From: Clostridia bacterium
GTDB lineage: Bacteria; Bacillota; Clostridia; Christensenellales; Aristaeellaceae
Direction of reading: 5' to 3'
NCBI GenBank assembly: GCA_900769075.1
Contig: CAAGFE010000111.1
Location: 752 to 64,751 of the forward strand
DNA length: 64,000 bases
Positions within the stretch are counted from its first letter, which is position 1, and every line of letters begins with the position of its first letter. The notes under the pieces are model-generated. The model worked only from the letters and a program-made list of their open reading frames with translations, was not told where the DNA came from and made no database searches. This document shows, piece after piece, positions 386-61,484 of this stretch. A program made the translations under genes and the position numbers.

Positions 386-415
386 GCTCAGCGGTGCAGC
401 ACTGCCCCGCTGAGC
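386..415 (-). terminator. Putative hairpin terminator downstream of the flavoprotein gene (perfect 9-bp inverted repeat GCTCAGCGG/CCGCTGAGC)
   Basis: Perfect inverted repeat at 386-394 and 407-415, followed on the minus strand by ACTTTTCC. The U-tract is weak. Confidence 0.35.
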
Positions 416-428
416 TGGCGATGTTGAA

Positions 429-2510
429 TCAAACGGTGCCGTGGGCGCTGGTCGCGCTGTCACCGGTGGAAACGACGGGCGCTTCGGTCCCGATGTATTC
501 GCCGGTCAGGGCACCCAGAACGGTCGCCATGCCGATGGAGATGCCGTTCATCGGGCTGGTGTACTGGAGGGGGAAGCGGCCGCCGGAGGCATTGCCCACC
601 GCGAACAGGCCGGGGATGGGCTCGAAGTGCTGGTTGAGCACCGCGCCGTTGCCATCCACGAACAGGCCCGCCAGGGTGACCAGCACCAGGTTGGCGTTGC
701 GCTCGATCTTCTCGGCGTAGAAGGGGCCCTCGTTGATGCGAACCATCATATTTGCGCTCTTGGCATAATCGGGGTCCTTGCCGTTGGCGGCGTATTCATC
801 GTAGGTTCTGACGGACTGGACGAAGTTCTCCGCCGCTTCGCCCTCGTAGCCCAGGTAGGAGGCCAGGGTTTCCAGGTCATCCGCAGCGTAAACGCCCCGC
901 ACGCCGTCCGCACCGGCGGCATAGACCTGCGCCAGTTTGGTTTCGTAGTCCGCCATCTTCGCGTCGCTGATGTCCGCGGCGTTGAAGTGGCCCAGGGGCT
1001 GGTTCTGCGCGAACTCGCGCCAATGCCCGTTGTCCCACACCTGCACGATGTGGCTGCCGATGGGCTGACGGGCGCTCTGGCAGCCCGCCACGAAGGGAAC
1101 GCCAAAGGCCTCGTTGCAGAAGCGCTTGCCGTACTTGTTGATCCACAGTCCGCCCGCCGCGCCGAAGAAGCCCATCGGGAGCGCGGAGGTCGCGCCGCCC
1201 ATGGCTGCACGGGGGCCGATTTCCATCACGCCGCCGGCCCAGATGCCCATGCGGGTGCCATAGCCGTTGCGGCCCGCGCCGGTCAGCTTGGTGTAGGGAT
1301 TGCACTCCTGCACCTCGGTGCACAGGGCGCTGTACATCTCGCTGTTGGCAGAGAAGTCGCCGGTGGCCAGGACGGTGGCCTTGCGGCTCATGAAGCGGTA
1401 ATAGCGCCCGTCCTCCTCGCTCTTGCAGATCACGCCGCAGACGGTGTCGCCATCCTTGATGAGCACCTTGGCGGTCATCTGATAGAAGGCGCGGCTGGCG
1501 GGAGAGGCTTCAATGCCCTTCTCGATCTGTGCAACGCAGAACGCGCCGGAGGAGCCCATGTTGCCGCTGCCCAGGTTGGCCACCGCCGGATAGGTCCAGA
1601 AATGGCCCTTCTGATAATTGTACTTGTTGCTGGCCTGGTCGATGGTGCAGACGCTGGTGACCTGGGTGATGTCGTCGTAGACCTCCATCAGCCAGTCCAC
1701 GATTTCGCCGTTGCGCTGGGCGAACTTGCGGATCAGGTCGGGCTGCGCGCGGCCGGCGCACTGGAGCATGTAGCTGTCGATGAAGTCGGTGGGATCAAAG
1801 GTGCTCTTGGGCACGCCGAGCACCTTTTCCTGCCACTCGGAGTTGAAATGACCCAGCTGGCCGCCGTAGCTGTTGAAGGCGTCCTTGGCCTGGGAGTCGA
1901 TCACGATGCAGGTGTTGCCCTTCTCGCAGGCCATGCGGAAGCAGGGCGCACCGGAGTAGTTCGCGCCGATGACGATCACATCCGCGCTGTATTCGCCGGC
2001 GATGTCGCTCTCGGCGATCCTCGGGGGTTCGCCCACCCAGCTGCGGCGCATGCTGTAATACACCCTGTCGCCGTTGGCGTCCACCTGTTCCACAGGATCG
2101 GTGCTGGCGGCGGAGGCAGCCACATAGGGCACGCCCTTGGCCTGGGCGATACACCTGGCGGCGGCTTCCTTCACGCCGTCGGAGGTAATGGTCGCGCCGG
2201 TGACGGCATCCACGTCGGCGCTCTGGGCGTCGAACATGGCCTTGGTCAGCTTTTCGGCGGCAGGGCCGGCAATGGACTCGGTTTCGCCGGACACATCCAG
2301 CACGATGTTGGTGATGGAGGTCTCGTCGAAGGTCATGGTGACGGTCACATCACCGTTGCGGCCGGCGGCGGTGGCGGTGTAGGTGCCGGGGGTGTAGAGG
2401 GGCGCGCCCTCCGCCCTGGTCACCATCGCGGGAATCATGCTTGCGGCGACGGCGCCAACAGCGCCCTTGCCTGCAAACCGGAGGAAATCGCGGCGGGAAA
2501 TATTTGCCAT
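429..2510 (-). CDS. Tat-exported flavoprotein reductase: twin-arginine signal + FMN_bind domain (putative covalent-FMN threonine motif) + FAD-binding fumarate-reductase/urocanate-reductase-like domain (693 aa)
   Basis: N-terminus MANISRRDFLRFAGKGAVGAVAA is a Tat motif. DAVTGATITS matches the ApbE flavinylation-type FMN_bind motif. DVIVIGANYSGAP marks the dinucleotide fold. GGAAGGAG RBS upstream of ATG at 2510. The track ORF extends 5' to 2645 but lacks an RBS there. Confidence 0.75.
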   Translation of the reverse strand: MANISRRDFLRFAGKGAVGAVAASMIPAMVTRAEGAPLYTPGTYTATAAGRNGDVTVTMTFDETSITNIVLDVSGETESIAGPAAEKLTKAMFDAQSADVDAVTGATITSDGVKEAAARCIAQAKGVPYVAASAASTDPVEQVDANGDRVYYSMRRSWVGEPPRIAESDIAGEYSADVIVIGANYSGAPCFRMACEKGNTCIVIDSQAKDAFNSYGGQLGHFNSEWQEKVLGVPKSTFDPTDFIDSYMLQCAGRAQPDLIRKFAQRNGEIVDWLMEVYDDITQVTSVCTIDQASNKYNYQKGHFWTYPAVANLGSGNMGSSGAFCVAQIEKGIEASPASRAFYQMTAKVLIKDGDTVCGVICKSEEDGRYYRFMSRKATVLATGDFSANSEMYSALCTEVQECNPYTKLTGAGRNGYGTRMGIWAGGVMEIGPRAAMGGATSALPMGFFGAAGGLWINKYGKRFCNEAFGVPFVAGCQSARQPIGSHIVQVWDNGHWREFAQNQPLGHFNAADISDAKMADYETKLAQVYAAGADGVRGVYAADDLETLASYLGYEGEAAENFVQSVRTYDEYAANGKDPDYAKSANMMVRINEGPFYAEKIERNANLVLVTLAGLFVDGNGAVLNQHFEPIPGLFAVGNASGGRFPLQYTSPMNGISIGMATVLGALTGEYIGTEAPVVSTGDSATSAHGTV

Positions 2511-2720
2511 GCATGTACTCCTTCCGAAGCTTGCGCTTCTGTTGATTGCGCATATTTTAGCAAACTTCGGAGGAAATGGAAACGGGCCTTGACCAAGTGG
2601 GCGCAGAAGCGGACCAACTGGGCATTCCCGGGCGCGTCCGGGCAAGAAAGAGCGCGCCTCATGCCGCCGCGGCGCACAGGGAGAACCGTCCGTCTGCGCC
2701 TGCGCCGGGCAATCCGGTTT

Positions 2721-3425
2721 TCACGGGTCGGCCGCGGGGAACAGGCGGTACTGCGCCATGCTGGTGAAGGCGGCGTAGTGCAGGGCCCGCATGTCCAATC
2801 GCCATTCGCGGCGCTCCCTGCCGATGGACGCCAGCGCCGTCCGGAGCCGGTGGAGCATGTCCTGACTGTACTCGCCGGGCTTGTAGTAAGCCAGCGTCAC
2901 ATGGAGCGTCAGCGGATACCCCAGCGGGACAATCCGCTGAAACCGTTCATACATGCCCATCAGCGCGGCGCAGTCGGCCTCCGCGGAAGGCTCGAAGCCC
3001 ATGACAAGGCTCGTGCCGACCATGCTGAACAGGCTGCAGCTGCGGACGCCGATGGGAGATGGGCGTTCCGCGCAAGCCTGCCTGATTGCCGCCTGGGCCA
3101 GCGGCCGATTGTCGTTCGTCCCCTCGGGCATGGTTTCCGGCTGGCTCAGCAGATCATGGAGCGTGATATGGAAGGTGTCCGGGGCGATGCGTTCGGCCAG
3201 GCACTCGCCCCAGGCGTCATATAGCGCCGCCTGCACCCCCGCCAGCCAATCCACCATGTCCTGCGGGAGGGTAAAAATCACGGTGTCGCCGCAGAACGGG
3301 CGGAAGCTGCCGTCCGGGTTCACCTTCCTTGCCAGTCCGGCGCCGGTGCACAGCCGACCGTCCCGGGGCAGGCTGTCCCACATGAACGCCGTGCGCGCCC
3401 GATATGCCTGCAAGCTCTCCAGCAT
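2721..3425 (-). CDS. 2H phosphoesterase superfamily protein (LigT / 2'-5' RNA ligase-like), 234 aa
   Basis: Two H-x-T-x motifs, FHITLHDL and LHVTLAYY, at the spacing typical of 2H phosphoesterases. Lies 15 bp downstream of the GH28 gene on the same strand. Confidence 0.55.
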   Translation of the reverse strand: MLESLQAYRARTAFMWDSLPRDGRLCTGAGLARKVNPDGSFRPFCGDTVIFTLPQDMVDWLAGVQAALYDAWGECLAERIAPDTFHITLHDLLSQPETMPEGTNDNRPLAQAAIRQACAERPSPIGVRSCSLFSMVGTSLVMGFEPSAEADCAALMGMYERFQRIVPLGYPLTLHVTLAYYKPGEYSQDMLHRLRTALASIGRERREWRLDMRALHYAAFTSMAQYRLFPAADP

Positions 3426-3440
3426 CTGTCATTCATCCCT

Positions 3441-5006
3441 TCAGCGGACGTCCTCCAGCACCACCTCGGGCCGGGTGTTGCAGCTGCGCGGCGTGACGGA
3501 CAGCCCCTCCAGGGTCAGCCCGTCCACATGGCGGGCATAGACGCCGCAGGCCGGCACATCGCCATGGGCGTTGCTCTCCGGGTAATCAAAGAGCAGCTCG
3601 TCCACCTTTTCCGGCAGGAAGAGGACTTCCTCATTGTCCCGGTAGCGCATGGTCAGATCCCGCACGGTGATGTTTTCCAGGGCCCGGCGCACCGTGATTT
3701 CCCCCGCCAGGGCACTCTCGTAGCCGGTGATGATGCAGGGCAGCTCACAGTTCAGGGCCGTCACCCCGCTGATGGTCACCCGGCGGATCCGTCCGCCCCA
3801 GAAGCGGTCATTCACATCCTCGGTGTAGGGGCGCTGATAGCGGTTGCGGCGGTTGAGGGCGATGTAGATCGGGCAGAGCACCTGGTTCATGCGGATGTTG
3901 CGGACGGTCACGTCCTCCACCACGGTTCCGTCGCAGCTTTCCACGCTGATGCCGCTGACGCTGCCGGGGTAGATGTCCGGCAGGAGGAAATCGCAGTCCT
4001 CCACCAGCACATGGCGGATATCGCAGCCGGTTTCCGTGCCGATCTTGAAGGCGTTCATCACCGTCAGCACCGTGCAGCGGCGGATGGTGACGTCCTCCAT
4101 GGCCCGGTGGGTAAAGGCGGGATTTTTCAGCACGATGCCGTCATCCGCACAGCTGACGAAGCAGTGCTCCACCAGGGCGTGGCTGGTGGCGCTCAGGTCA
4201 ATGCCGTCCGCGTTGGCGACATGGCGGTTGTCGTTGATGACCACGTCCCGCAATGTCACCCGGTCGCAGCATTCCGTATGGAGCGTCCAGCTCATGGCGG
4301 CTTCCAGCACGATGTTCTCCATGCGCACATCCTGGCTCTCCCGCACCCACACCATCGCCGAGGGACGGCGCAGCCGGGGCTTTCCCTCGCCATACTTGTC
4401 CTCGCAGTAGCGGATGCGGTCCCGGTAGAAGGTTCGCACCGAGCCGGGCACGGTGTTGATCTGCGCCTTCTGATCCCGCCGGGGCAGCATGGTCACCGGG
4501 AAGGGCGCGAGGGCCGGCTTCCGGCGGGGCTCGTAGACATACCACTCGCCGCTGCCGCAGATTTTGCCGCCGCCGGTCACCGTCACGTCGGAGGCGTGGT
4601 CGATCAGCAGCAGCGCGCCCTGGCTGGATTCACCCTTGCGGTCATCGGGAGAAGCGCCGTCGTGAATCATCAGCTGCTCCACATCCCGGCTGGCCACCAG
4701 CGCGCTTCCCGGGGCGATAAACAGGGTCGTGTGGGCAGGCAGGCGCACCGTGCCGGTCACATAGCGTCCGCCGTCCACCAGAATCACGCCGCCGCCCTGT
4801 TCCGCACAGGCCCGGCAGCAGGCCGCGATGGCCTCCGTATTCAGCCGGTCCGGCTCAGCCTTCGCGCCCCAGTCACGAATGTCAAACACCGGCATCTCCG
4901 GCAGGGGCTGGTGAGGGTTGATGTACGCATCCCAGGGGATGTCGGGATAATAGTCGCCCGGATAGACGGCGCCGAATTGGGGATAGGTCGGTTTGTCAAG
5001 CATCAT
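3441..5006 (-). CDS. Glycoside hydrolase family 28-like right-handed beta-helix protein (polygalacturonase/rhamnogalacturonase-type), no signal peptide
   Basis: NADGIDL (NTD-type motif), CADDGIVLK (DD motif) and repeated beta-helix-like segments. AGGAG RBS about 11 nt before ATG at 5006. The track ORF start at 5153 is probably too long. Confidence 0.6.
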   Translation of the reverse strand: MMLDKPTYPQFGAVYPGDYYPDIPWDAYINPHQPLPEMPVFDIRDWGAKAEPDRLNTEAIAACCRACAEQGGGVILVDGGRYVTGTVRLPAHTTLFIAPGSALVASRDVEQLMIHDGASPDDRKGESSQGALLLIDHASDVTVTGGGKICGSGEWYVYEPRRKPALAPFPVTMLPRRDQKAQINTVPGSVRTFYRDRIRYCEDKYGEGKPRLRRPSAMVWVRESQDVRMENIVLEAAMSWTLHTECCDRVTLRDVVINDNRHVANADGIDLSATSHALVEHCFVSCADDGIVLKNPAFTHRAMEDVTIRRCTVLTVMNAFKIGTETGCDIRHVLVEDCDFLLPDIYPGSVSGISVESCDGTVVEDVTVRNIRMNQVLCPIYIALNRRNRYQRPYTEDVNDRFWGGRIRRVTISGVTALNCELPCIITGYESALAGEITVRRALENITVRDLTMRYRDNEEVLFLPEKVDELLFDYPESNAHGDVPACGVYARHVDGLTLEGLSVTPRSCNTRPEVVLEDVR

Positions 5007-5220
5007 GAACACGCCACTCCTTTTCGATTGTTTTCGCGGGTTCTGCGCATGGACAGTATAGCGCAAACCCTCGCGGTTTTCAACCGGAATCAGATGAAAA
5101 GGGCGCACCGGCTGCTGATGCACAGAAAAGCCGCCCATGCGAGCAGCTCGCACAGGCGGCCGGGTGCAGCCATGCAGAAAATGCCCGAATCGGCGGTAAA
5201 CCTCCGCCCTCGCGGAACGA

Positions 5221-5625
5221 TCAGTTCTGGGCTTCGAGTTTTTCCAGGTTGCGCAGCATCAGCTGGCAGTAGGAAAGCTGCATATCCTCCTCGCTCGGCG
5301 TGGTATACGCAGACAGCACCAGCAGATTCTCCCCTTCCCGGACATATTCCACGCCGTATTCACGGGCGAAATTGGCCATCGAGCCATCGTCGCAGGTAAT
5401 CCGGGGATGATTTGCCGTCGCTGCGATGAGGCGCAGATCCAGTTCGCCCATTTCAGCGATGTAGCGCATCAGCCTTTTGTATTGCGGCCTGTTGAAATCC
5501 TTGCCGGACTGCTTTTCCACAACGATGTTCTGGGCCTTGACACCATATTCGGTCATCGCAATCACTTGTCTGGTTTCATTCTGATCCTTTGTCGACACCC
5601 GAACATATCCGTATACCGTACTCAT
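5221..5625 (-). CDS. Serine recombinase (resolvase) catalytic-domain stub, 134 aa, lacking HTH DNA-binding domain; possibly degenerate
   Basis: N-terminus MSTVYGYVRVSTKDQNETRQ... has the GYxRVST..Q resolvase active-site signature and ..EKQSGKDFNRPQYKRLMRYI... After about 65 aa it diverges from canonical resolvases. Strong AGGAGG RBS. Confidence 0.5.
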   Translation of the reverse strand: MSTVYGYVRVSTKDQNETRQVIAMTEYGVKAQNIVVEKQSGKDFNRPQYKRLMRYIAEMGELDLRLIAATANHPRITCDDGSMANFAREYGVEYVREGENLLVLSAYTTPSEEDMQLSYCQLMLRNLEKLEAQN

Positions 5626-5814: not shown

Positions 5815-6735
5815 TCAAAACAAATCCAGCATGTTATCCAGATAGATGGCTTCCCTGACCTGGAGCTGGTACTCCGGCTTGGTCATGTAATAGAGCAGAA
5901 ACTCCAGGATCAATGCGCTGCCCAGCCCGCGGCCTTCTATCTTGAAGTGGGAAAAGCCCATCGGCAGGTAGCGGTTCACAATGTCCGCCGGACCGATGAA
6001 GCCCGGATTCTGCATCGCCCTGGAGAAGCGATAGCCGCCGCTGGCGCCGGGCGCCGTGCAGATGTGCTCCGGGCCGGGTTCGCCCAGGCTCTTCCGGCTG
6101 ACCGCCTCATAGCAGGCTTTTCTGTCCCTGCAGCCAAACCAGCAGCATTCGTTGCACAGGAATTCCACCTTCGCCCTGAGGGGAAGCGCCAGCGTATCCA
6201 GCAGGTCAAAGGCTCGGTTCAGGCGGAAATCCGGCACGACATAGCGGAATTCCTCCCGTTCCGTCTCGCGCCGGAACTGCTCAAAATCGGTCAGCACCTT
6301 GGTGGTGGAGGACACCAGGTACATTTCCGGATACGTCCGCCGGAGGTAGTCCGTCAGCAGTTCCGAATGGACGATGACGCCATGCTGTGGCCCATCGCTC
6401 CGCGCGAACAGCCGGCAGAGCGCATTGCACCGGGGATCGCCCAGATGTTCCTCCCGCAGGAGGGAATTGCTGAACGTCAGCCGGGCAGAAATGCCGTATT
6501 CCCGCGTCAGCCGGAGCACCGACGCCGCGTCGTCCTCCCCGAAGCCCACCCGGCCGCCGCCCCAGAGGCAGTCCGCCGGCGCGCCGTAAATCGAGCCGAT
6601 GTCACACCAATCGTAGAAATACTCCCGGTGTTCCCGGAACAGCGGCAAAAACGCTGCGTACAGCGCGCCGAACTCAAACAGGCCGGGCAGGTGGTAATAT
6701 GCAACGCCCATCTGTTCCTGTTTCACCATGTTCAT
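5815..6735 (-). CDS. Hypothetical protein with Cys-rich motif (CNECCWFGCRDRKAC), 306 aa, unknown function
   Basis: Long ORF with high GC3 consistent with coding. Cys cluster EFLCNECCWFGCRDRKACY. No confident family match from the sequence alone. Confidence 0.45.
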   Translation of the reverse strand: MNMVKQEQMGVAYYHLPGLFEFGALYAAFLPLFREHREYFYDWCDIGSIYGAPADCLWGGGRVGFGEDDAASVLRLTREYGISARLTFSNSLLREEHLGDPRCNALCRLFARSDGPQHGVIVHSELLTDYLRRTYPEMYLVSSTTKVLTDFEQFRRETEREEFRYVVPDFRLNRAFDLLDTLALPLRAKVEFLCNECCWFGCRDRKACYEAVSRKSLGEPGPEHICTAPGASGGYRFSRAMQNPGFIGPADIVNRYLPMGFSHFKIEGRGLGSALILEFLLYYMTKPEYQLQVREAIYLDNMLDLF

Positions 6736-6746
6736 CACCCGTTTTG

Positions 6747-9110: not shown

Positions 9111-9128
9111 TTGGCAGCAGCGCCCGCA

Positions 9129-9365
9129 TCCCCCGTATGCATCCCGCATACGGGGGATACTGCGTATCGGCAAAGTGCCTGGGCACTTTGCCGAGAGGCT
9201 GAAGAATGTTTTCCTCCGCAAAATGGCATTATGCTGCGGAAAACGCCCCGCCCGACCGGCAAAGCCGGCCGATACGAATTCGGTCAGAGGGCCTGCGGGC
9301 CCTCCGACACCTCCCATGGGTTTGTTGATGATCTGTCCTCCGTATGCACCCTGCATACGGGGGAT
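9129..9365. repeat. Cluster of strong hairpins: two copies of a CCGTATGCA..TGCATACGG(GGGA) stem-loop (9129-9156 and 9339-9365) plus a perfect 11-bp inverted repeat GGCAAAGTGCC/GGCACTTTGCC (9169-9192)
   Basis: Direct reading. Stems are 9-11 bp perfect. None is followed by a U-tract. Confidence 0.5.
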
Positions 9366-9495
9366 ATTTGTTTGTTGGGGCATTCAGGCTGCGGCGCCCG
9401 AGAGCATGCGAAGCAGCGGAGAAGAATGTTTCAAAAAATTGAGAAACAACGCATAAAGCGAATGAAAATTGCTGACTATTACAGTTTTTTCTCTT

Positions 9496-9510
9496 CCGAA
9501 AACGTTTCCA
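9496..9510 (+). promoter_or_regulatory. cre-like (CcpA-type) near-palindrome CCGAAAACGTTTCCA upstream of module-1 promoter
   Basis: Matches the cre core G-AA-CG-TT-C. Two mismatches to the WTGNAANCGNWNNCW consensus at the 5' end. Confidence 0.25.
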
Positions 9511-9586
9511 TCCGACAAGAATACGAGAACATTTGTAATATAAGGAAAATTTCAGGCCAAAATATACACATATTCCACAAGAGCTA

Positions 9587-9615
9587 TTGCCAAGTTTCCA
9601 TGTATATGATAAAAT
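9587..9615 (+). promoter_or_regulatory. Putative promoter of module 1 (-35 TTGCCA, 17-nt spacer, -10 TAAAAT) inside an AT-rich island
   Basis: TTGCCAagtttccatgtatatgaTAAAAT. Lies about 50 nt upstream of GTG 9666. The local GC is far below the window average. Confidence 0.4.
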
Positions 9616-9665
9616 CCAGATATGATGAAACAAACGTATATGATGGATATGTAGGGGGATTCGTT

Positions 9666-12503
9666 GTGAAGCGTATGCTGAAAATCTGGAGTTGCCTCTG
9701 TGTGCTGCTTCTGATTCTGCCGCTGCATGCGGCCGGTGAAAGCCTGACGCAGCTTTATCTGGAACGCTCAGATAAGAATGATTATGCTGCGTATCTTGCT
9801 TCCGTGGGCGAACCGGCGATCGTGACAGACAGCATGAAGCTCTATGAGGCCGAAGAAGGGACGCTGCTGGCCGAGGGTGAACAGCTGACCTTCCCAGTGT
9901 CCGTGGCGCAGAGCATCTTCGGTTATCCCGTGCTGACCTACGCCATGACCGGCAGCAACATCCTGGACAACGGCATTACCCTGATGGTGGACGGCAAGCT
10001 CCCCTATGCGGAGTGCAGCACCCTGACCCTTGACAGCCTGTGGACGCAGAGCGGGACATTCAATCTGGACCGCTACGGCAACGAGGTCGTGTCCATGCCG
10101 GTGAAGTCCCACGACATCACCTCCTGCCGGCTGATGGGCAAGGCCGGGATGTACGCCAAGGGCATGGGCCTGTACCTGACAGCGGGCGAGCACGAGATCA
10201 CCGTCATCTGCCGGGTAGGCCCCTTCCGGCTGTACAGCATGACGCTGGAAGGCGAGATTCCCGTTCTGCAGGCCGCCCAGGGCAAGCCCCAGGGCGAAGC
10301 CCTCATCACCCTGCAGGCCGAGCAGGTGCCGGTGCGCAACAACCCCAACATCCGCCCGCTGGCTGATTACGACATGCGCCTGACGCCTTACTCCAGCGGC
10401 AAGAAGGTCATCAATCATATTGACGATACTTCCTATAAGTATCCCGGCGATACGCTCACCTACACCTTCACCGTGGAGGAAGCCGGGTATTACGCCATGG
10501 CGCTGCGGCTGAGGCAGGGCGAGCTGGCAAACTTCCCGGTATACCGCACGGTGCTGATCGACGGCGTCATCCCCGGCCCCGCCTTTGAGAATGCCGAGCT
10601 TGGCTACACCCTGCAATTCCGGAATCAGACCCTGCTGGATGAAAACGGCAGCCCTGCCCTCCTGCACCTGACCGAGGGCGAGCATACCCTGACGCTGCTG
10701 ACCAGCGTGGATCCCCTTCGCCCTTCACTCCTGCTTTTGCAGACCATCTCCGACGAAATTGCGGATCTTTCCCTGCAGATCACCAAGATCACCGGCGGCA
10801 ATACGGATTTCTTCCGGGACTTCGCGCTGGAGGATTTTGATTTTCACATCGCGGATGACCTGACCCGCTGGATCGGCGAACTGACGGCTGTCCGGGCAGA
10901 GCTGGGCAGGATCGCCCATGCGGAGGGGCGCGTCGGTGCGCTGTCCAACCTGGACATGGCCATTCAGGCCCTGGAACAGCTTGCCACGGAACCGGATAAT
11001 CTGCCCAAGAAGCTGACCCTGTTTTCCCAGGGTTCCTCCTCCGCGCGGGGCTTCCTGGTCAGCACGGTGGAGAGCCTCTCCACCAGCCCCGTGGGGCTGG
11101 ACGCGATCTACCTCTATACAAAGGAAGAGCTCCTGCCCAAGGAGCCTAATTTCCTGGAGCGCGCAGCCGACACCGTCCGGCGCTTTGCGGCTTCCTTCAC
11201 CGATGACAGCTATGTGGCGGACAACGCCGACGAAAGCAAGCTCCAGGTGTGGGTGAACCGTCCCCGTCAGTACCTGGAAATCCTCCAGCGCATGGCGGAC
11301 ACCACCTTCACCCCCGCCACGGGCATTGAGGTCGAGTTCTCCATCATGCCCGATGAGAGCAAGCTCATCCTGGCCAATGCCTCCGGCACCGCGCCGGACG
11401 TGGCGCTGGGGGTCTCCACCACCCGCGTGTATGACCTGGCAGTCCGCGGCGCGCTGAAGAACCTGCGGGCGTATGAGGACTTCGCCGCGGTGGGCAAGTG
11501 GTTCCCCACGGGATTGCTGATGCCCGCTGTCTGCGACGACGGCCTGTACGCCCTGCCGGAAACCTTCAACTTCAATGTGCTCTTCTACCGCAAGGATATC
11601 CTGGATTCCATCGGGCTGGAGGTGCCCAACTCCTACGAGGAAGTGCTGCAGATGCTCCCCGCGCTCCACCGCTACGGCCTGAACTACAACAATTTCGTGG
11701 CCAATGCGGTGGGCTACAAGGCCTTCTCCATCACCACGCCCTTCCTGTACCAGAACGGCGCTGTGCTGTATGCGGACGGCAATCTCCACGTTCAGCTGGA
11801 CACGGAGGAAGCCATCGAAGCCCTCAAGGTGATGACGGATTCCTTCGTCATCTATGACATGGACTTTGAGGTCAACAGCTTCTACCAGAGCTTCCGCGAC
11901 GGTACGCTCCCCATCGGCACCTCCAATTACGGCATGTACAACCTGGTGATGAACGCCGCGCCGGAGCTGGCGGACAAGTGGGCCATCGCCCTCTACCCCG
12001 GATTGACGGACGAAAACGGTGAGGTGCAGCGCTGGATCTCCGGCGCGGAGCAGAGCTGCTTCATCTTCGACAGCACCAACATGCCCGAGGCCTCCTGGCA
12101 GTTCCTCTCCTGGTGGATGAGCGAGGAGATCCAGACGGAGTTCGCCTTTACCCTCCAGTCCACCCTGGGCAATGAATACATGTGGAACAGCGCCAATTCG
12201 GCCGCCTACATGAACGCGCCCTGGCCCACGGAGCACAAGAAGATCATTGCCGAGCAGATGAACTGGATCTACGAAACGCCCCGCAACCCCGGTTCCTACA
12301 TGGTGGAACGTGAGCTCTCCAACGCAGTCAACGCCGTGTGCCTGGAGGGCAAAAACCTCCGCGCGGCGCTGGATGAAGCGATCAAGCGCATTGACCGTGA
12401 GCTGGAGCGCAAGCTGGAGGAATTTGGCCGCATGAAGGATGGACAGCTGACCCAGCCCTTCATCGTGCCGGACATCAATACAGTGAAGGAGTGGCTGGAA
12501 TGA
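9666..12503 (+). CDS. Large secreted bipartite glycan-binding/solute-binding protein (module 1): signal peptide + two CBM-like beta-sandwich repeats + C-terminal family-1 extracellular solute-binding domain, 945 aa
   Basis: GTG start at 9666 with AGGGGG RBS. Signal peptide [19 protein letters not shown]. The N-terminal half has two tandem repeats ending in AGEHEITV and [10 protein letters not shown]. The C-terminal half ([14 protein letters not shown]...) is a clear paralog of the SBP domain of 39627-42551. Confidence 0.7.
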
Positions 12504-13408
12504 CCAAGGCTGTCAAAATGCGCGGCCCCAGGGATCAACACATTGCATGGGCATTCCTCGCTCCCTACATCCTGCTGTTCACGCTGTTCATCATCGTGCC
12601 GGTGGTGATCGCCATCGGGCTGTCCTTCACGAACTTCAACACCATCCAGGCGCCTGATTTCGTGGGCTTCATGAACTATGTGAACCTCCTGACCCGCGAC
12701 GCGATCTTCATGCAGTACGTCCTGCCCAACACGATCCTCTTCGCCATCATCGTGGGGCCCGGCGGATACCTGCTGTCGTTCTTCCTGGCCTGGTGTCTGA
12801 GCCAGATCACCAAGGGCCCGCGCACGGTGCTGGCGCTGCTGATCTACAGCCCCTCCATGACCTCCGGCGTGGCGATGAACGTCGTCTGGCGCATCATCTT
12901 CTCCGGCGATGAGCGCGGCTACCTGAACGCGCTGCTGCTGAATCTGGGCTGGATCTCAGAGCCCATTCAGTTCCTGCAGTCCACCCAGTACCTGATGCCG
13001 GTGATGATCATCGTGGCCCTGTGGTCCTCCATGGGCGTGGGCTTCCTGGCGATGCTGGCCGGCATGATGAACATTGATGAGAGCGTCTATGAAGCGGCGG
13101 AGATCGACGGATTGCGCAACCGCTTCCAGGAAGTGTTCTACATCACCATTCCCATGATGAAGCCCCAGATGCTCTTCGGCCTGGTGATGGCGGTGGTCAA
13201 CACCTTCCAGGTGGGCCACATCGGCGTGAGCCTGTCCGGCGCGAACCCCACGCCCCAGTACGCAGGTCAGCTGATCGTCAACCTGATCGAGGACTACGGC
13301 TTCATCCGCTACGAGATGGGCTACGCATCCGCTGCCTCCGTGGTGCTCCTCGTGCTGATCTACACCATCACCCGCTGGAGCGGCAAGATGTTCAAGGAAG
13401 ACGAATGA
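12500..13408 (+). CDS. CUT1 ABC transporter permease, MalF/UgpA-type (module 1), 302 aa
   Basis: Six TM segments and the EAAEIDG permease signature. ATG at 12500 overlaps the upstream stop as ATGA. Paralog of 42548-43432. Confidence 0.8.
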
Positions 13409-13421
13409 AAGGGAGAACGCC

Positions 13422-15443
13422 ATGCGCATCAAACGCATCCTGGTATTCCTGCTCTGTTTGGCGCTTCTGCCCCTGACTGCCCGGGCGGATGAGGCGCCCT
13501 ACTACACCCTGACTGAGATCTACTCCAGCGAGGCGGCTCACTCTCCCGCAGGCTACCTGCCGGAGGGGACTTACACCGAGTTTGACGGGAAGGCCCTCAA
13601 GCGCCCGGCGGACGTGTTTGTAGATGACGAGGATCATCTGTTCATCTCCGATGAAGGCAACAAGCGCGTGCTGATGTGCACGCTGGAGGGCGAGTGGATC
13701 CGCACCTTCGGCAGCAAGGACCTCAAGCAGCCCGGCGGCCTCTACGTCCGGGACGGGAAGCTCTATGTGGCGGACCTGAAGCTCCAGCAGGTTGTGGTCT
13801 ATGACGTCGCAACCGGTGAGCAGGTCTTTGCCCTGGTGCATCCCGGCACGCCGCTGTACGGTGTGAAGGCCAGATTTGAGCCGCTGAAGGTCGCCGTGGA
13901 TGCGGCGGGCAGCATGTATGTCATCTCCAAGGGCAACACCAACGGCATTGCCCAGTTTGCCGCAGACGGCACCTTCCTTGGTTACTTCGGTGCCAATGAT
14001 ACCCGTCTCAGCCTGGGCGAGATGCTCAAGCGCCTCACCTACACCGAGGAGCAGCTGGCCAAGCTCAAGCGGGTGATCCCTGCCACACCCACCAGCGTGG
14101 ATATGGACGGGCGCGGTCTGCTCTATACCGTCACCACCGGCGTCAGGGGCGTGAAGCGCCTGAACATGTCCGGCCTGAACATCATGGAACCCACCGGCTG
14201 GGGGCATGACAACACCATTGACGTGGCGGTGGGCGCTCAGGAGAACATCTTCGTCATCAACGAGCTGGGCTACATCATGGAGTACACCCGGGACGGGCGC
14301 TGCCTGTTCTACTTCGGCGGCCAGGATCAGGATCGTACCCGCACGGGCCTGTTCGTCAACACGGTCGCCATCGACGTGGATCAGTACGGCAATCTGTACG
14401 TCCTTGACCGCGACAAGGCGCTGGTGCAGCGCTTTGCCGTGACGGACTATGCAAACCTGGTTCACCGTGGTCTGGCCCTTTATCAGGAGGGCCGCTACGC
14501 CGAAAGCCGCGAGCCCTGGGAACAGGTGCTGGAGCTCAACGCCATGTTTGACTATGCCCACATGGGTCTGGGCCGGGCGTATTACAAGCTGGAAATGTAC
14601 GAGGAGGCCATGCGGGCCTCCCGCCGGGGCGGGGACAAGGAAGGCTACTCCGATTCCTTCTGGGAAGTCCGCAATGTCGTCCTCCAGGGCGGCATCATGT
14701 GGATGATCGGCGGCCTGCTCGCGCTTTTCCTCGTCAGAAAGCTCTGGAAGCTGCTCAAGGCCCGTGTGAAGCCCGTGCAGACCTGCTGCGCCAGGGTGCA
14801 TGCCATCTTCGATGTGAAGCTGCTGCACGAGCTGAAATTCATGACCTACTTCCTCCGCAATCCGGCGGATGCCTTCTACGGCGTGAAGCATGAGGGCAAG
14901 GTCAGCGTCCTGTCCGCGACGATCCTCTACATCGCGGTGATCGTGATCTACATCGTCAACAAGTATTTCTGCGGCTTCCTGTTCAAGTCCATCCCCGACG
15001 GGCAGTTCGAGGTTGGCGTGGATCTGGTGCTTCTCATCGGCGGCATTGCCCTGTTCCTGATCGCCTGCAACCTGATCTGCTCCATCCGTGACGGCGAGGG
15101 CACCTTCAAGCAGATGTACTGCTCCTTCGCCTACGCGCTGGGCCCGTATGTGATGCTGGGGCCCATCACCTTCGCGCTGTCCTTCGTGCTGACGTTCAAC
15201 GAGGCGTTCATCATCACCCTCATGGATGTTGTCACGCTTGGCCTGTGCCTGATGCTGGTGGTGATGATGGTCAAGTCGCTCCAGAACTACAGCTTCACCG
15301 AAACCTTCGCGGCGCTGCTGCTGACGCTGTTCACCATGCTGATGATCGTCATTGCACTGGTCATTGCGGCGGCCCTGGTGGCGCAGCTGTGGGAGTTCCT
15401 GACGGCCGTGTGGAAGGAGGCCCGATTCTACAATGAAGTGTAA
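13422..15443 (+). CDS. Signal peptide + NHL-repeat beta-propeller + TPR + C-terminal Yip1-family polytopic membrane domain protein (module 1), 673 aa
   Basis: MRIKRILVFLLCLALLPLTARA signal peptide. Repeated ...LYVAD/...MYVISKGNTNGI... NHL blades. TPR-like ALYQEGRYAESREPWEQVLELNAMFDYAHMGLGRAYYKLEMYEEAM. Five C-terminal TM helices with the Yip1-like LRNPADAFYG motif. Paralog of 44328-46364. Confidence 0.7.
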   Translation: MRIKRILVFLLCLALLPLTARADEAPYYTLTEIYSSEAAHSPAGYLPEGTYTEFDGKALKRPADVFVDDEDHLFISDEGNKRVLMCTLEGEWIRTFGSKDLKQPGGLYVRDGKLYVADLKLQQVVVYDVATGEQVFALVHPGTPLYGVKARFEPLKVAVDAAGSMYVISKGNTNGIAQFAADGTFLGYFGANDTRLSLGEMLKRLTYTEEQLAKLKRVIPATPTSVDMDGRGLLYTVTTGVRGVKRLNMSGLNIMEPTGWGHDNTIDVAVGAQENIFVINELGYIMEYTRDGRCLFYFGGQDQDRTRTGLFVNTVAIDVDQYGNLYVLDRDKALVQRFAVTDYANLVHRGLALYQEGRYAESREPWEQVLELNAMFDYAHMGLGRAYYKLEMYEEAMRASRRGGDKEGYSDSFWEVRNVVLQGGIMWMIGGLLALFLVRKLWKLLKARVKPVQTCCARVHAIFDVKLLHELKFMTYFLRNPADAFYGVKHEGKVSVLSATILYIAVIVIYIVNKYFCGFLFKSIPDGQFEVGVDLVLLIGGIALFLIACNLICSIRDGEGTFKQMYCSFAYALGPYVMLGPITFALSFVLTFNEAFIITLMDVVTLGLCLMLVVMMVKSLQNYSFTETFAALLLTLFTMLMIVIALVIAAALVAQLWEFLTAVWKEARFYNEV

Positions 15444-17589
15444 ATGGCTGATCCTCCTGGCCCTGCTGCTGCTGCTGCTGCCGGCCCTTGCCCTGGCGGA
15501 CACGCATACGGTGGAAAACGAGCGCCTCCTCCTGACCATTGACGACGCCACCCTGTACATGACCGTCACCGACAAGGCCACCGGCAAGCACTTTGCAAGC
15601 AGCATCGAACCGGATTCCGGCAAGCTCACGGGATGGAAAGCCTTCGTGGCGTCCCCCCTGGTGCTGGATGTGGTGGACGGTCAGTCCGTCATCACCAAGC
15701 AGCAGGCGCTGATGGGCAATCAGGTCGCCATTGATTTCACGCTCCTGGCTAACGGCGCGGATGCACGGGTGGACTTCACCGCCCTGGGCGTGAGGATCAA
15801 GCTGGAGATCCGGCTGGACGAGGATTCCGTGGCCATCACCATGCCCAAGGACGGTCTGGAGGAATATCCGGTCTCCAAGGGCGTGGATAAGAACACCGGC
15901 GCGGAGAGCTTCACCGATACCCGCGTGTGCGGCGTGTACCTGCTTCCCTGCTTCGGTGCGACGGAGCTGGACGAGAAGTCGGGCTACATGCTGGTGCCGG
16001 AAGCGGCGGGGGCGCTCATCGCCTTCTCCAATGGCCGGGGCGTGGGCAACACCCCCTTCAGCAAGCGCATCTACGGCACGAACATCGGCGTGGACAAGTC
16101 GGTCATGACGGCTTTGAACCGCCCTGCCGAGCAGATCACCATGCCGGTTTACGGCATGGCGTATACCGATGAGGGGCTGGGCTACCTGGCCGTGGTGGAG
16201 AATGGCTCCGAAGCCGCCGAGATCATGGCCTACCCCGCCGGCGTCATCACCAATTACAACTGGGCGGCCGCGCACTTCACCCTGCGCGAGCAGTTCATCG
16301 CCCAGACCACCCGCACCCTGGGCCTCAACAGCCGCGAAAGCAAGCCCTACCTGCGGGACATGACCGTGCGCTTCTACATTCTCTCCGGCGAAGATGCAAG
16401 CTACACCGGCATGGCCCAACGCTACCGCAGAGCCCTGCAGGAAAGCGGCGGGCTCAACGCCGCGGATACCGCCTATCGCCCCCGCGTGGATTTTCTGGGG
16501 GCCGAAAGCGCGGAGTTCCTGCTGTGGAACAGCGTGGAGCCCATGACCACCGTGGCGCAGATGGGGGAGATCATCGCAAGCTGCGATGAGAGCGGCGTCA
16601 GCGATCCGCTGGTGATCTACCGGGGCTGGCAGCCCGGCGGCCTGACCTGGGCGCTCGGCAGCGGAAGCGTGGAGCTGGAGCGCAAACTGGGCAAAGCGGA
16701 TGACCTGATCGCCCTGGCCCGGTCTGTCAGGGAAAGCGGCGGAAAGTTCATGCTGGAGATCGACCCGGTGCAGGCCAATCCCAACCGTGTGTACAACAAT
16801 CGGGTGGATGTGGTGCGCACCATCGGCCAGACCATCGCTGAGCATCAGACCGGCAAGGAGCTTTTCCCGACCATGTACTACCTCACGCCCAGCCGTTCAA
16901 GCGAGATTCTCCAGGCGATTTCGGACAAATGGGGCGGGCATGTGGACGGCCTGGCGCTGGTCACGCTGCCCAACACCCTGTTCTCCTATTACGCCCGCGG
17001 CGGCAATCACTCCCGCGGCGACACGCTGGCCGCCTATCAGGACATGCTGGCAAACACCAACGCGGTGCTTGCCCTGCAGAACCCCCTCAGCGGCTACCTG
17101 GAGCAGACGGATGTGTTCCTCGATCTGCCCCTGGATACCACCAGCTATTCCTTCCTGTCGGCGGAGGTGCCCTTCCTGCCCATGGTGCTCAGCGGGAGCA
17201 TCCCCTACTATTCCACCTGGCTGAACTTCGAGAGCAACCAGCACAAGGCGCTGCTCAAGCTGGTGGAGTACGGCGCCTATCCCTCCTGGCTGCTGACCGG
17301 TGAGGACGTGCAGCCCCTGATCCACACCAACTCCTCCGATGTGTTCTCCGCCAAATGGGACGTGCTGCTGCCCACGATGGCGGACATCAACGCCCGGCTG
17401 CAGGCCCTGCACGAGGCCATCGGCGGAAGCCGCATGATCAAGCATGAGCTGCTGGCGTCCGACGTCGTCAAGGTGACCTACGAAAACGGGACGCTGGTAT
17501 ACGTCAACTACCGCAAGGCGGAGGCCGCCATCGACGGCGTGAGCATTCCGGCCCTGGACTACCTGGTGAAAGGAGGCGATGCGCGATGA
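15433..17589 (+). CDS. Secreted protein of unknown function (module 1), 718 aa; N-terminal beta-rich region + putative (beta/alpha)-barrel-like core; DUF-type, possibly glycoside-hydrolase-like
   Basis: Signal peptide MKCKWLILLALLLLLLPALALA. Conserved blocks shared with 46348-48915 (PVYGMAYTDEG / PVFGMVHTDSE; IYRGWQPGGLT / TYRGWQKNGLT; FLPMVLSGSIPYY / FLTIALSGQIPYY). Start overlaps the upstream stop by 11 nt. Confidence 0.6.
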   Translation: MKCKWLILLALLLLLLPALALADTHTVENERLLLTIDDATLYMTVTDKATGKHFASSIEPDSGKLTGWKAFVASPLVLDVVDGQSVITKQQALMGNQVAIDFTLLANGADARVDFTALGVRIKLEIRLDEDSVAITMPKDGLEEYPVSKGVDKNTGAESFTDTRVCGVYLLPCFGATELDEKSGYMLVPEAAGALIAFSNGRGVGNTPFSKRIYGTNIGVDKSVMTALNRPAEQITMPVYGMAYTDEGLGYLAVVENGSEAAEIMAYPAGVITNYNWAAAHFTLREQFIAQTTRTLGLNSRESKPYLRDMTVRFYILSGEDASYTGMAQRYRRALQESGGLNAADTAYRPRVDFLGAESAEFLLWNSVEPMTTVAQMGEIIASCDESGVSDPLVIYRGWQPGGLTWALGSGSVELERKLGKADDLIALARSVRESGGKFMLEIDPVQANPNRVYNNRVDVVRTIGQTIAEHQTGKELFPTMYYLTPSRSSEILQAISDKWGGHVDGLALVTLPNTLFSYYARGGNHSRGDTLAAYQDMLANTNAVLALQNPLSGYLEQTDVFLDLPLDTTSYSFLSAEVPFLPMVLSGSIPYYSTWLNFESNQHKALLKLVEYGAYPSWLLTGEDVQPLIHTNSSDVFSAKWDVLLPTMADINARLQALHEAIGGSRMIKHELLASDVVKVTYENGTLVYVNYRKAEAAIDGVSIPALDYLVKGGDAR

Positions 17590-18560
17590 AAAAGCTACGC
17601 ATCGGCCTGGTCACCCGGCGCGAAATGAAGGGCTATGTGTTCCTGCTCCCGTGGCTGATTGGTTTTGTGACCTTCTTTCTGATCCCGCTGGTTCAGTCTG
17701 TGTGGTACTCCTGGCATGATGTGAAGGTCACCGCCAATGGCCTGAAAATGGTTTGGGTCGGCTGGGATAATTACCGTTACATCTTCCGGGGAGATACCGT
17801 CTTTGTGGAACAGCTGAGCAACTTCTTCACCGATGCCGTGCTGCGCCTGGCGGTGATTCTGGTGTTCTCCCTGGTGATCGCCATGATGCTCAATCAGCCC
17901 CTGAGGGGCAAGGGGATCTTCCGCACGCTGTTCTTCCTGCCCATCATCGTGGTGTCCGGCCCCGTGCTGGAGCGCCTGGTGAACGAGGGCGCAACGGCGG
18001 TGCCCCTGATTGAATCCTACGGTGTGAACGGAATCGTTGAGGCGATGCTGCCGCCCATGCTGGCGCGTCCGCTCTCCGGCCTGTTCAGCCAGCTGATCCT
18101 GGTGCTGTGGTACTCCGGCGTGCCGATTCTCATCTACATGACCGGCCTGCAGAAGATTGACAGCACCCTCTATGAAGCTTCCATGATCGACGGCGCCAAC
18201 GGCTGGGTTTCCTTCTGGAAGATCACCCTGCCTGCGCTGCGCCCGATGATCCTCATCAACGGCGTGTATACGATGGTGTTCCTGGCAACCACGGGCCTGA
18301 ATGAGGTCATCGCAACGATCAATGCGCGCATGTTTGCCGACAGCAGCCGGGGCGGCGGCTACGGCATTGCCAGCGCGATGGCCTGGGTGTACGCGCTGTG
18401 CCTGGCGGCAGCCCTGATCGTCCTGCTGCTGATCACCAGGGAACGCAAAGGGCAGCAGATCGCCATCCAGAAGACCGGCGAGCAGATCGCCATTGAGCGG
18501 ATGCACGCAGAGCGCGCCAGGAACATGAAGCGGAAGGGAGGAAAGAGGCATGGCAGATAA
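17586..18560 (+). CDS. CUT1 ABC transporter permease, MalF-type (second transporter of module 1), 324 aa
   Basis: TM-rich protein with EASMIDGANGW permease loop. ATGA overlap with the upstream gene. Paralog of 48905-49894. Confidence 0.8.
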   Translation: MKKLRIGLVTRREMKGYVFLLPWLIGFVTFFLIPLVQSVWYSWHDVKVTANGLKMVWVGWDNYRYIFRGDTVFVEQLSNFFTDAVLRLAVILVFSLVIAMMLNQPLRGKGIFRTLFFLPIIVVSGPVLERLVNEGATAVPLIESYGVNGIVEAMLPPMLARPLSGLFSQLILVLWYSGVPILIYMTGLQKIDSTLYEASMIDGANGWVSFWKITLPALRPMILINGVYTMVFLATTGLNEVIATINARMFADSSRGGGYGIASAMAWVYALCLAAALIVLLLITRERKGQQIAIQKTGEQIAIERMHAERARNMKRKGGKRHGR

Positions 18561-19518
18561 GCCGATCCTTCACAAGGTGAAAAGGATCGCCATTGGCGGC
18601 TACCGTCAGATGGGCCTGCTGCCCAAGGCGGCGCTGTATGTGATGCTGATCTCCCTGTGCTTTGTGTATGTGTACCCGATCCTCCACATGGGGATCACCT
18701 CTCTCAAATCCCTGACCGACCTGCTGGACCCCTCCGTGCAGTGGCTGCCCCATGAGATCACCTTCAGCAACTACACCCAGGCGCTGGACATCATGGGCTT
18801 CTCCGAGCATCTGGTGGATACGCTGCTGGTGACGGTGGTTCCGGCACTTTGCCAGACGTTTTCCTGCGCGCTGGCGGGCTACGCCTTCGCCCGCTTCCGC
18901 TTCAAGGGGCGCGGCATCCTCATGGCCTGCGTGCTGCTGACGTTCATCGTGCCCTTCCCGGTGCTCATGGTGCCCACCTACACCATGTATGTGGACTACG
19001 GCATCATCCGCACCATCTGGACGATGATCCTGCCCGCCATCACCGGGCAGGGCTTGCGGGCGGCGATCTTCATCCTCATCTACCGCGCCACCTACGAGCA
19101 GATCCCCTTCTCCCTGGATGAGGCCGCCCGGGTGGACGGCGCCAGCGAAACCCGCGTGTTCCTGACCATCGGCGTGCCCCTGGGCCTGCCGGCGATGATC
19201 ACCAGCTTCCTCTTCTCCTTTGTGTGGTACTGGAACGAAACCTATTCCACCTCCCTGTTCATGGGCAACGCCGCCATGGGCAGCACGAAATACGTTTCCA
19301 CCCTGGTGATGGAGCTGGCCAAGTTTGAGGACAGCTACCTGGCCTATCTGCAAAAGGCAGGCGGATGGGCAGCCCAGAGCGGCGGCGCCAACATTCAGAA
19401 CGAGGCCGTCACCATGGCCGGCACGATGCTGGTCATTGCGCCGCTGCTGATCGTTTACTTCTGCCTCCAGCGCTATTTCACCGAGGCCATTGATCGCAGC
19501 GGCATCACCGGTGAATGA
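18550..19518 (+). CDS. CUT1 ABC transporter permease, MalG-type (second transporter of module 1), 322 aa
   Basis: DEAARVDGAS permease loop. GGGAGGAAAGAGG RBS. Paralog of 49910-50884. Confidence 0.8.
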   Translation: MADKPILHKVKRIAIGGYRQMGLLPKAALYVMLISLCFVYVYPILHMGITSLKSLTDLLDPSVQWLPHEITFSNYTQALDIMGFSEHLVDTLLVTVVPALCQTFSCALAGYAFARFRFKGRGILMACVLLTFIVPFPVLMVPTYTMYVDYGIIRTIWTMILPAITGQGLRAAIFILIYRATYEQIPFSLDEAARVDGASETRVFLTIGVPLGLPAMITSFLFSFVWYWNETYSTSLFMGNAAMGSTKYVSTLVMELAKFEDSYLAYLQKAGGWAAQSGGANIQNEAVTMAGTMLVIAPLLIVYFCLQRYFTEAIDRSGITGE

Positions 19519-19609
19519 GTGCGCTCGGATTCAACACGGTATCCATACAGGCAAGCGGTGCGTCGCAGGGCCTGTACACGGTATAAATCATGAAAGGAGA
19601 CTCCAACGT

Positions 19610-43432: not shown

Positions 43433-43448
43433 GAAAGGAGGGAATCCC

Positions 43449-44315: not shown

Positions 44316-44327
44316 AGGAGGATCGAG

Positions 44328-49894: not shown

Positions 49895-49909
49895 GGAGGG
49901 GGAAAGACA

Positions 49910-50884: not shown

Positions 50885-50975
50885 TCCCCTGCCCCGGATG
50901 CGCCGGGGAGGACATCCCATTCCCATGCATCAAAGCCTGGTCAGAGGCTTTAGATAAAAAAAGGAGGACACCCCA

Positions 50976-61340: not shown

Positions 61341-61424
61341 ATCAGTCCTGTTCTATTTGATGTCGGGCTATTCCGATGGCATCATCGCGGGCATGCCGGA
61401 AACGATTCCAGGCCTGGCAATCAT

Positions 61425-61460
61425 CTTGCCCGGACAGGGATAAGGCGTTGTCCGGGCAAG
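61425..61460. other. Perfect 12-bp inverted repeat CTTGCCCGGACA-N12-TGTCCGGGCAAG between glgP and the GH13 gene
   Basis: Direct reading. No U-tract on either side. Confidence 0.4.
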
Positions 61461-61484
61461 AGGTTCGGGCCTGTGCAGCGGCGA

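Follow-up and report, generated by a model that had tools for sequence, protein, structure and literature searches.

The 64,000-nt window analyzed here (contig CAAGFE010000111.1 of assembly GCA_900769075.1, from a Clostridia bacterium) carries on its minus strand, at positions 429–2510, a gene for a flavoprotein reductase, followed by the first part of a gene for a short protein with the HemN/HemW fold. We consider it probable that the reductase is exported and flavinylated, that the HemW-like protein is its noncatalytic maturation partner, and that a two-component system regulates the pair. The reductase class itself is already known. The new element is the pairing of such a reductase with a degenerate HemW-like partner, of which we found no description in the literature.

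Architecture of the predicted exported reductase

The gene coordinates 429–2510, given in a preliminary description made from the sequence alone, are matched exactly by the 693-residue product of the likely start, the ATG at 2510, which is preceded by the ribosome-binding site GGAAGGAG. The promoter-like site farther upstream, assigned by consensus match only, is the sole such match in 3.6 kb, where shuffled sequence yields 0.5. The G+C fraction at third codon positions of the coding frame is 0.85. The ratio of nonsynonymous to synonymous substitution rates (dN/dS) against orthologues is 0.16–0.30, indicating that the gene is kept by purifying selection. No record of the exact reductase sequence was found by identity look-up.

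The twin-arginine (Tat) signal should be noted first. The motif SRRDFLR is located at residues 5–11, and the NCBIfam model TAT_signal_seq (TIGR01409) gives 17.4 bits, just above its cut-off of 16.7. Nearly all reductase homologues keep the twin arginines, and Pfam TAT_signal (PF10518) recognizes several of them. Cleavage by signal peptidase I is likely at TRA/EG, and the signal has no lipobox Cys, in contrast to many homologues. The following flavin mononucleotide (FMN)-binding domain, FMN_bind, contains the sequence DAVTGATITS at residues 101–110, and the Thr or Ser at the predicted flavinylation position is conserved across the close clade, which comprises reductases at least 60% identical to the query from Oscillospiraceae, Lachnospiraceae, and Eggerthellaceae. 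Among solved structures, the flavinylated FMN-binding domains 8p2b and 8p2a match this N-terminal part. The remaining part is a catalytic domain of the FAD_binding_2 family (FAD, flavin adenine dinucleotide), and neither a CxxCH heme motif nor a cytochrome domain is found in the protein. The Tat signal, the two flavin domains (FMN_bind, 50.4 bits with a cut-off of 22; FAD_binding_2, 104 bits with 20.4; both far above chance), and the lack of a cytochrome domain had all been claimed before, and each claim holds.

Listeria FrdA, Enterococcus UrdA, and the Cir, Crd, and Urd reductases of Holdemania and Eggerthella described by Little et al. share with this protein the export signal, FMN_bind with a [S/T]GA[S/T] motif, FAD_binding_2, and the absence of a heme domain. 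The protein differs from them in that its clade has no characterized member, its active-site loops are distinct, about half of the clade has an Asn in the Rossmann motif, and it is accompanied by a HemW-derived partner. Extracytoplasmic flavin reductases of gut anaerobes combine an export signal with a flavinylatable FMN_bind and FAD_binding_2 (bioRxiv 10.1101/2022.12.26.521950; PMC10979944), in agreement with the earlier placement of the gene in this class. Since all three elements are present, the assignment as a predicted extracytoplasmic flavinylated reductase, forming an uncharacterized clade inside the known class, is supported.

The conserved C-terminal tail is hydrophilic. Within the clade, only the Firmicutes sub-branch has it, and there it also occurs in a few proteins devoid of FMN_bind. 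It matches none of the known anchoring signals and is similar to the ApbE flavinylation motif without fitting it. FMN_red proteins provide a precedent for C-terminal flavinylation (PMC10979944). The tail was considered as a second ApbE flavinylation site and rejected: the G-A-[ST] core is missing, and the residue at the 'A' position is variable.

The degenerate HemW-like partner

The most distinctive trait of the locus, absent from the preliminary description, is a conserved HemW-like gene next to the reductase together with a LytTR two-component system. The partner gene starts 69 nt past the reductase stop codon, beyond a hairpin. The fragment within the window carries CPKRCDYC and IGGGIAGH, and the full-length orthologue (P0125) consists of 311 residues. 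The fragment (122 residues) gave one match in a word-indexed protein database, and an alignment query was used to collect the family. For the adjacency survey, one genome per species and metagenomes were scanned, and tblastn and hidden Markov model (HMM) searches followed.

The partner lies on the same strand, 0–380 nt 3′ of the reductase, in 17 of the 18 close-clade lineages having downstream sequence. A gene of this length (~305–315 residues) is placed likewise in a rumen Clostridia metagenome-assembled genome (MAG), in another Clostridia contig, and in Raoultibacter timonensis. No partner is found beside relatives at ~36–38% identity. Searching from the partner side, all four further partner homologues (33–44% identity) lie directly 3′ of a FAD_binding_2 gene, and one of the adjoining reductases shares just 28.7% identity with the query; a similar distant pair is present in locus L039. 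The association may thus predate the close clade or reach beyond it. The pairwise identities of reductase and partner co-vary (r = 0.83), with the partner diverging faster (mean identity, 44% versus 70%). The clade is small and horizontally spread through Oscillospiraceae, Lachnospiraceae, and Eggerthellaceae.

Additional arrangements were observed at individual loci. Partner genes accompany FAD_binding_2 reductases 28–29% identical to the query in L107 (2940–5876), L039 (10001–12983), and L028 (10001–12820), the pair in L107 being next to a GerE/LuxR regulator. A second gene of the partner family (L110, 6043–7008, and L111, 5011–5976, minus strand; 207 bits to the partner HMM) has the same orientation as a kinase and LytTR regulator and is located between two FMN_bind + FAD_binding_2 reductase genes. 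Tandem paralogous reductases occur at 163–8142 in L093, which has three, one of 1,156 residues, and L002 has a second reductase upstream (1–1833). In a pig-gut contig otherwise 98–99% identical to the window (L116), the spacer between reductase and partner is ~190 nt longer (~1030–1219, compared with 384–416 in the window). The hairpin segment is matched twice there, which may reflect strain variation or an assembly artefact. In the window, the 81-nt stretch 360–440 that includes the hairpin has a folding energy of −28.9 kcal/mol (z = −1.9) and is below the criteria of the terminator scan; the hairpin may act on transcription between the two genes as a weak terminator or attenuator.

The partner family is discrete: its members score at least 218 bits, whereas canonical HemW and HemN proteins score at most 155 bits. 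An exhaustive search over 1.84 billion protein representatives yielded 33 at E ≤ 1e-30 versus 4,964 at E ≤ 1e-10. The AlphaFold2 model of the partner (predicted local distance difference test score, pLDDT, 93.7) is matched by Foldseek to HemN (1olt; E 1e-21; query TM-score, TMq, 0.82), corresponding to the core fold of radical S-adenosylmethionine (SAM) enzymes. The (beta/alpha)6 core, the GGG motif, and GLPGQT are common to the partner and HemW, RSAD1, and HemN. The best NCBIfam match is HemW. The scores against the HemW model TIGR00539 are 60.5 bits for the window fragment and 105.2 bits for the full-length L002 orthologue, below the cut-off of 205.4. Pfam Radical_SAM gives 23.5 bits for the fragment, under its cut-off of 29.5. 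Every curated family cut-off is missed by the partner, and no NCBIfam model covers the family.

The partner differs from HemW in several respects. The HemN_C domain (PF06969) and HNxxYW are absent from all 91 representatives of the family, whereas canonical HemW-like proteins have HNxxYW in 24 of 25 cases, the CxxxCxxC triad in 25 of 25, and PF06969 in nearly all. Family-wide, GGGTP is replaced by GGGIAGH, xNPG by VHPGM, and G(V/L)QS by (D/E)Y(A/V)T, while GGG and GLPGQT are retained. The client reductase is also without a recognizable heme site. That the partner is a housekeeping HemW placed next to the reductase by chance was considered and rejected, given the discreteness of the family, the loss of the HemW motifs, and the adjacency seen in both search directions.

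The Cys triad should be noted in particular. CxxxCxxC is lost in 39 of the 91 members (43%), with patterns such as YxxxSxxD, SxxxGxxG, and YxxxRxxT, and the Cys-less partners still adjoin the same reductases. The dN/dS values of the Cys-less copies (0.16–0.17) indicate that these, too, are kept by purifying selection. Because the Cys-less copies stay selected and beside the same reductases, the conserved function of the partner is probably independent of radical SAM chemistry. An active radical SAM enzyme, which would, for example, C-methylate or crosslink the reductase, or else produce or change a cofactor or the substrate, would agree with the triad in the window copy and elsewhere in the family, with the retention of GGG and GLPGQT, and with the similarity of the model to HemN, whose relatives include methyltransferases and cyclopropanases. 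We regard such an enzyme as unlikely: all or most of the triad has disappeared in several independent patterns under the selection noted above, three further motifs are replaced throughout the family, and the substrate-binding HemN_C is missing. A role as an Fe-S electron-relay subunit was also rejected, as L087, L088, and L093 are lineages in which FMN_bind and the Cys triad are both missing. The partner is most likely, as judged from these sequence features, a cytoplasmic factor dedicated to the maturation or assembly of the Tat-exported reductase, or a co-exported noncatalytic subunit of it.

Active-site residues and the GANYSG motif of the reductase

The nearest solved structures by sequence are Shewanella flavocytochrome c3 (Fcc3, 1qjd; E ~1e-15) and then the urocanate reductase UrdA (6t85; E ~1e-11), and ketosteroid dehydrogenases (KstD) rank next. 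The AlphaFold model of the reductase matches UrdA (E 2e-28), Fcc3, KstD, and cyclohexanone dehydrogenase at 14–20% identity. Fcc3, UrdA, and the reductase have in common the ATGG/ATGD motif and the FAD-contact motif GxGxxxGG in the C-terminal part. The likeness to fumarate and urocanate reductases claimed in the preliminary description is thus correct for fold and superfamily. It does not extend further: the identity to both UrdA and Fcc3 is ~19–20%, the tetraheme domain is absent, and the catalytic His/Arg set is not recognizable.

The catalytic residues were mapped by pairwise and profile alignments to Fcc3 only, in which exact positions are uncertain at ~20% identity. His504 and His505 of Fcc3 correspond to Leu610 and Val611 of the reductase, Arg545 to Pro653, and both Glu378 and Arg381 to Gly, while His365 corresponds to Gly432 or Arg434, depending on the alignment. 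The region of Arg402 cannot be aligned, and the reductase has an insertion of ~10 residues there (NEAFGVPFVAGCQSAR481). Among the NCBIfam models, the best match is VprA (NF053717) with 108 bits, under the cut-off of 600, and the flavocytochrome c model flavo_cyto_c (TIGR01813) gives 92.6 bits, under 285.45. Since the Fcc3 catalytic His and Arg residues are not recognizably kept and no curated cut-off is reached, the comparison indicates that the protein is not a fumarate or urocanate reductase.

The common superfamily and fold would be expected of an ordinary extracellular fumarate reductase, of which Listeria FrdA and Shewanella Fcc3 are examples, or of a urocanate reductase of the UrdA kind; Light and colleagues are reported to have found in 2019 that Gram-positive extracellular FrdA and UrdA share the FMN_bind + FAD_binding_2 architecture. 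The missing His/Arg set, the low identity, and the TIGR01813 score make this identification highly improbable. The active-site Arg pair is, furthermore, kept only in clade 1, which includes UrdA and CirD, with clade-specific residues elsewhere (Little et al., bioRxiv 10.1101/2022.12.26.521950). In the reductase, the invariant residues Arg434, Arg481, Arg645, and Tyr650 could serve in substrate binding or protonation.

The direction of the reaction was considered as well. An exported dehydrogenase or desaturase working oxidatively, as do 3-ketosteroid and cyclohexanone dehydrogenases, would be in line with the strong fold matches to KstD, delta4-(5alpha)-dehydrogenase, and cyclohexanone dehydrogenase, which appear in the sequence searches as well, and with the invariant Tyr650 in GGRFPLQY, which lies near the segment where KstD has a catalytic Tyr. 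The KstD-type NCBIfam scores are, however, far under their cut-offs (53.2 bits versus 788 for NF005882, and 44.4 versus 789 for NF009478). Besides, a Tat signal together with electron entry through FMN_bind in a strict anaerobe is the signature of a reductase, and nothing points to an extracellular electron acceptor system. We consequently judge oxidative function to be improbable.

The Rossmann motif GANYSG, in which Asn184 replaces the second Gly of GxGxxG, was compared across the close clade in 83 cluster representatives. GAGYAG is the most frequent form (28 representatives), followed by GANYSG (25), GLNYSG (14), and GLGYSG or GLGYAG (8), and a few have Ala or Cys at the position. Asn is found in about half of the clade (~40 cluster representatives, 60–91% identity), and the motif is GAGHAG in distant relatives (~38% identity). 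The preliminary description had called GANYSG atypical. The motif is real, and yet it is not peculiar to this gene, being a clade-wide polymorphism beside GxGxxG members. Because forms with Gly occur both in the clade and, as GAGHAG, in distant relatives, Asn at this position is derived; it is a lineage-wide state that is tolerated.

The variation among Gly, Asn, Ala, and Cys at this position could be taken as a sign of a decaying or non-flavin pseudo-enzyme. The remaining FAD-contact motifs are invariant (Asp205 at the end of beta-2, LATGDF, and GLFAVGNASGG), and the Asn-bearing genes are under purifying selection, so a pseudo-enzyme is hardly to be expected. Retention of Asn in so many representatives, the low dN/dS, the intact frame, and the presence of a ribosome-binding site and a promoter-like site all point in the same direction.

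Table 1. Positions of the features of the reductase–partner region in the window
Feature	Position	Strand	Remarks
Reductase open reading frame	429..2645	−	likely start, ATG at 2510
Reductase coding sequence	429..2510	−	693 residues + stop; Tat signal + FMN_bind + FAD_binding_2
Ribosome-binding site GGAAGGAG	2518..2525	−	spacing of 7 nt to ATG at 2510
Promoter-like site	2554..2582	−	TTTCCA / 17-nt spacer / TAAAAT, extended −10 TG; ~44 nt 5′ of ATG
Tat signal peptide	2409..2510	−	residues ~1–34; SRRDFLR at nt 2478–2498
FMN_bind domain	2148..2363	−	residues 50–121; Pfam PF04205, E 3.6e-13
Flavinylation motif DAVTGAT (in DAVTGATITS)	2181–2210	−	predicted acceptor Thr107, ApbE-type
FAD_binding_2 catalytic domain	576..1982	−	residues 177–645; Pfam PF00890, E 1.3e-29
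Rossmann motif GANYSG	1950–1967	−	residues 182–187; Asn184 at second Gly of GxGxxG
Clade-invariant loop GPRAAMGG	1194–1217	−	within FAD_binding_2 domain
Clade-invariant loop GKRFCNE	1110–1130	−	within FAD_binding_2 domain
Clade-invariant loop SARQP	1062–1076	−	within FAD_binding_2 domain
Clade-invariant loop GNASGGRFPLQY	561–596	−	listed with FAD_binding_2 domain
Conserved C-terminal tail STGDSATSAHGTV	432..470	−	residues 681–693; consensus S[ST]G[DE]S[AS]TSAxGT
Intercistronic hairpin GCUCAGCGG...CCGCUGAGC, then ACUUUUCC	386..415	−	between reductase and partner
HemN/HemW-fold partner, N-terminal 120 codons	1..360	−	cut by window edge; alternative start 369

Regulation, surroundings, and proposed mechanism

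A LytTR response regulator and a HATPase_c_5 (HPK10-type) kinase usually adjoin the pair, in convergent or divergent orientation, and do so in at least 10 lineages. Contigs overlapping the left end of the window at 99.3% nucleotide identity extend the locus beyond coordinate 1, where the 311-residue partner is followed by a convergent kinase (437 residues) and LytTR regulator (234 residues). The full module consequently reads reductase, partner, and then kinase and regulator on the opposite strand. Such a two-component system fits an inducible, substrate-responsive reductase. The known gut flavin reductases also share substrate-type regulation by an adjacent regulator. The reductases of Eggerthella lenta are typically accompanied by LuxR-type regulators, unlike the LytTR/HPK10 system of this clade.

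The genes upstream of the reductase were considered as members of the system and rejected, because none is conserved beside homologues: a 2H-phosphoesterase-like gene (2721–3425), a glycoside hydrolase (GH) family 28 gene (3441–5153), and a 307-residue open reading frame (5815–6738). The first of these (minus strand, 234 residues, 210 nt upstream of the reductase) has the HxT motifs HITLH and HVTLA, and its Pfam matches to 2′-5′ RNA ligase/LigT are under cut-off. An open reading frame at 5221–5625 (minus strand, 134 residues) encodes no more of a serine recombinase/resolvase than its N-terminal catalytic portion (Pfam Resolvase, profile positions 1–61) and is probably a truncated remnant; its 307-residue neighbor, also on the minus strand, has no Pfam match.

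The Pfam scan comprised 41 open reading frames, nearly all of the 64 kb, with two at 59568–63941 left out. The window contains genes for GH43 (four), GH51, GH10, GH2, GH28, and a GH27-like protein, sugar ABC transporters, HtpG, an extracytoplasmic function sigma factor, and SufBC. Two paralogous cassettes of ~12–13 kb are located at 9111–20953 and 39627–52406 (plus strand), and the compared proteins are 38–39% identical. Each cassette encodes a giant fusion protein with a substrate-binding protein (SBP) part, permeases, an NHL/TPR/Yip1 membrane protein, a DUF5696 protein, two more permeases, and an SBP. They are probably arabinoxylan or pectin utilization loci, since GH43, GH51, GH10, and GH2 genes surround them.

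In the proposed mechanism, the two-component system would induce expression of the reductase, and the apo-reductase would load FAD in the cytoplasm and leave the cell folded through Tat. An ApbE/Ftp-type transferase encoded elsewhere would then flavinylate it outside the cell. Electrons would be passed from a membrane quinol-linked or flavinylated carrier to FMN and then to FAD, and the enzyme would reduce a small organic acceptor, most likely at an activated C=C bond.

Several observations weigh against the reading of an exported reductase with a noncatalytic maturation partner. The hairpin separates the reductase and partner genes, which makes a shared transcript less certain, and in a mouse Eggerthellaceae MAG (L029) the reductase is followed by no partner gene. 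The CxxxCxxC triad is intact in 52 of the 91 partners (57%), including the window copy, and these may retain radical SAM chemistry. The AlphaFold2 model of the reductase is of moderate quality (pLDDT 74.8) and least confident in the conserved active-site loops, because of which the catalytic residues could not be placed on it. The second Gly of GxGxxG normally touches the pyrophosphate, and Asn at this position could weaken ADP binding. Finally, none of the genes for ApbE/Ftp, Ndh2, EetAB, PplA, or menaquinone synthesis is found among the 41 scanned open reading frames.

As for the role of the partner, HemW is a precedent for a HemN-fold protein acting as a cofactor chaperone for respiratory enzymes. 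We tentatively put forward the possibility that the short HemW-derived proteins are an unrecognized family of assembly factors for Tat-exported flavin reductases. The radical SAM scaffold would then be repurposed as a cytoplasmic chaperone for cofactor loading or proofreading, in which the Fe-S cluster is often dispensable. Because the nucleotide-binding motifs GGG and GLPGQT are kept, the partner might bind FAD by its adenosine moiety and so help to insert the cofactor into a reductase whose Rossmann motif is weakened.

Cgr2 of E. lenta is also a Tat-exported FAD_binding_2 reductase of a gut anaerobe with conserved cysteines; the reductase of the window has four invariant Cys residues. Its Cys82 and Cys371, whose context was derived from a published mutagenesis-primer sequence, suggest a correspondence to Cys190 (GxGxxGxxC) and Cys465 (RFC) of the reductase. 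In contrast, Cgr2 pairs with the cytochrome c Cgr1 and has no FMN_bind, and its other essential Cys residues are not Cys in the reductase. A Cgr2-like Fe-S site was considered and set aside, as only the two Cys positions are matched, through the primer-derived context. Resveratrol reductase (RER) was likewise considered as a counterpart and set aside: RER is abundant in Eggerthella, whereas no Eggerthella-named protein is found among the clade matches. Heterologously expressed Cgr2 has been reported to be unstable and was purified without flavin. That flavin reductases of this kind lack maturation factors when so produced is plausible by the parallel with Cgr2 only. If the assembly-factor family is real, it could explain the unstable, flavin-free state of Cgr2-like reductases expressed without their native factors.

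By means of extracytoplasmic flavin reductases, gut anaerobes respire metabolites from the diet and the host, and many of these enzymes are difficult to obtain in active form. The clade described here adds a directly testable conserved module, composed of the reductase, a degenerate HemW-like partner, and a LytTR two-component system, which occurs in the cultivable species R. timonensis (strain Marseille-P3277, locus L007). The tolerated change from Gly to Asn is a small but useful datum for predicting flavoprotein motifs. If the partner is a maturation factor, it would be an example of a radical SAM fold turned into a nonradical accessory protein, and its co-expression could open the biochemistry of these reductases.

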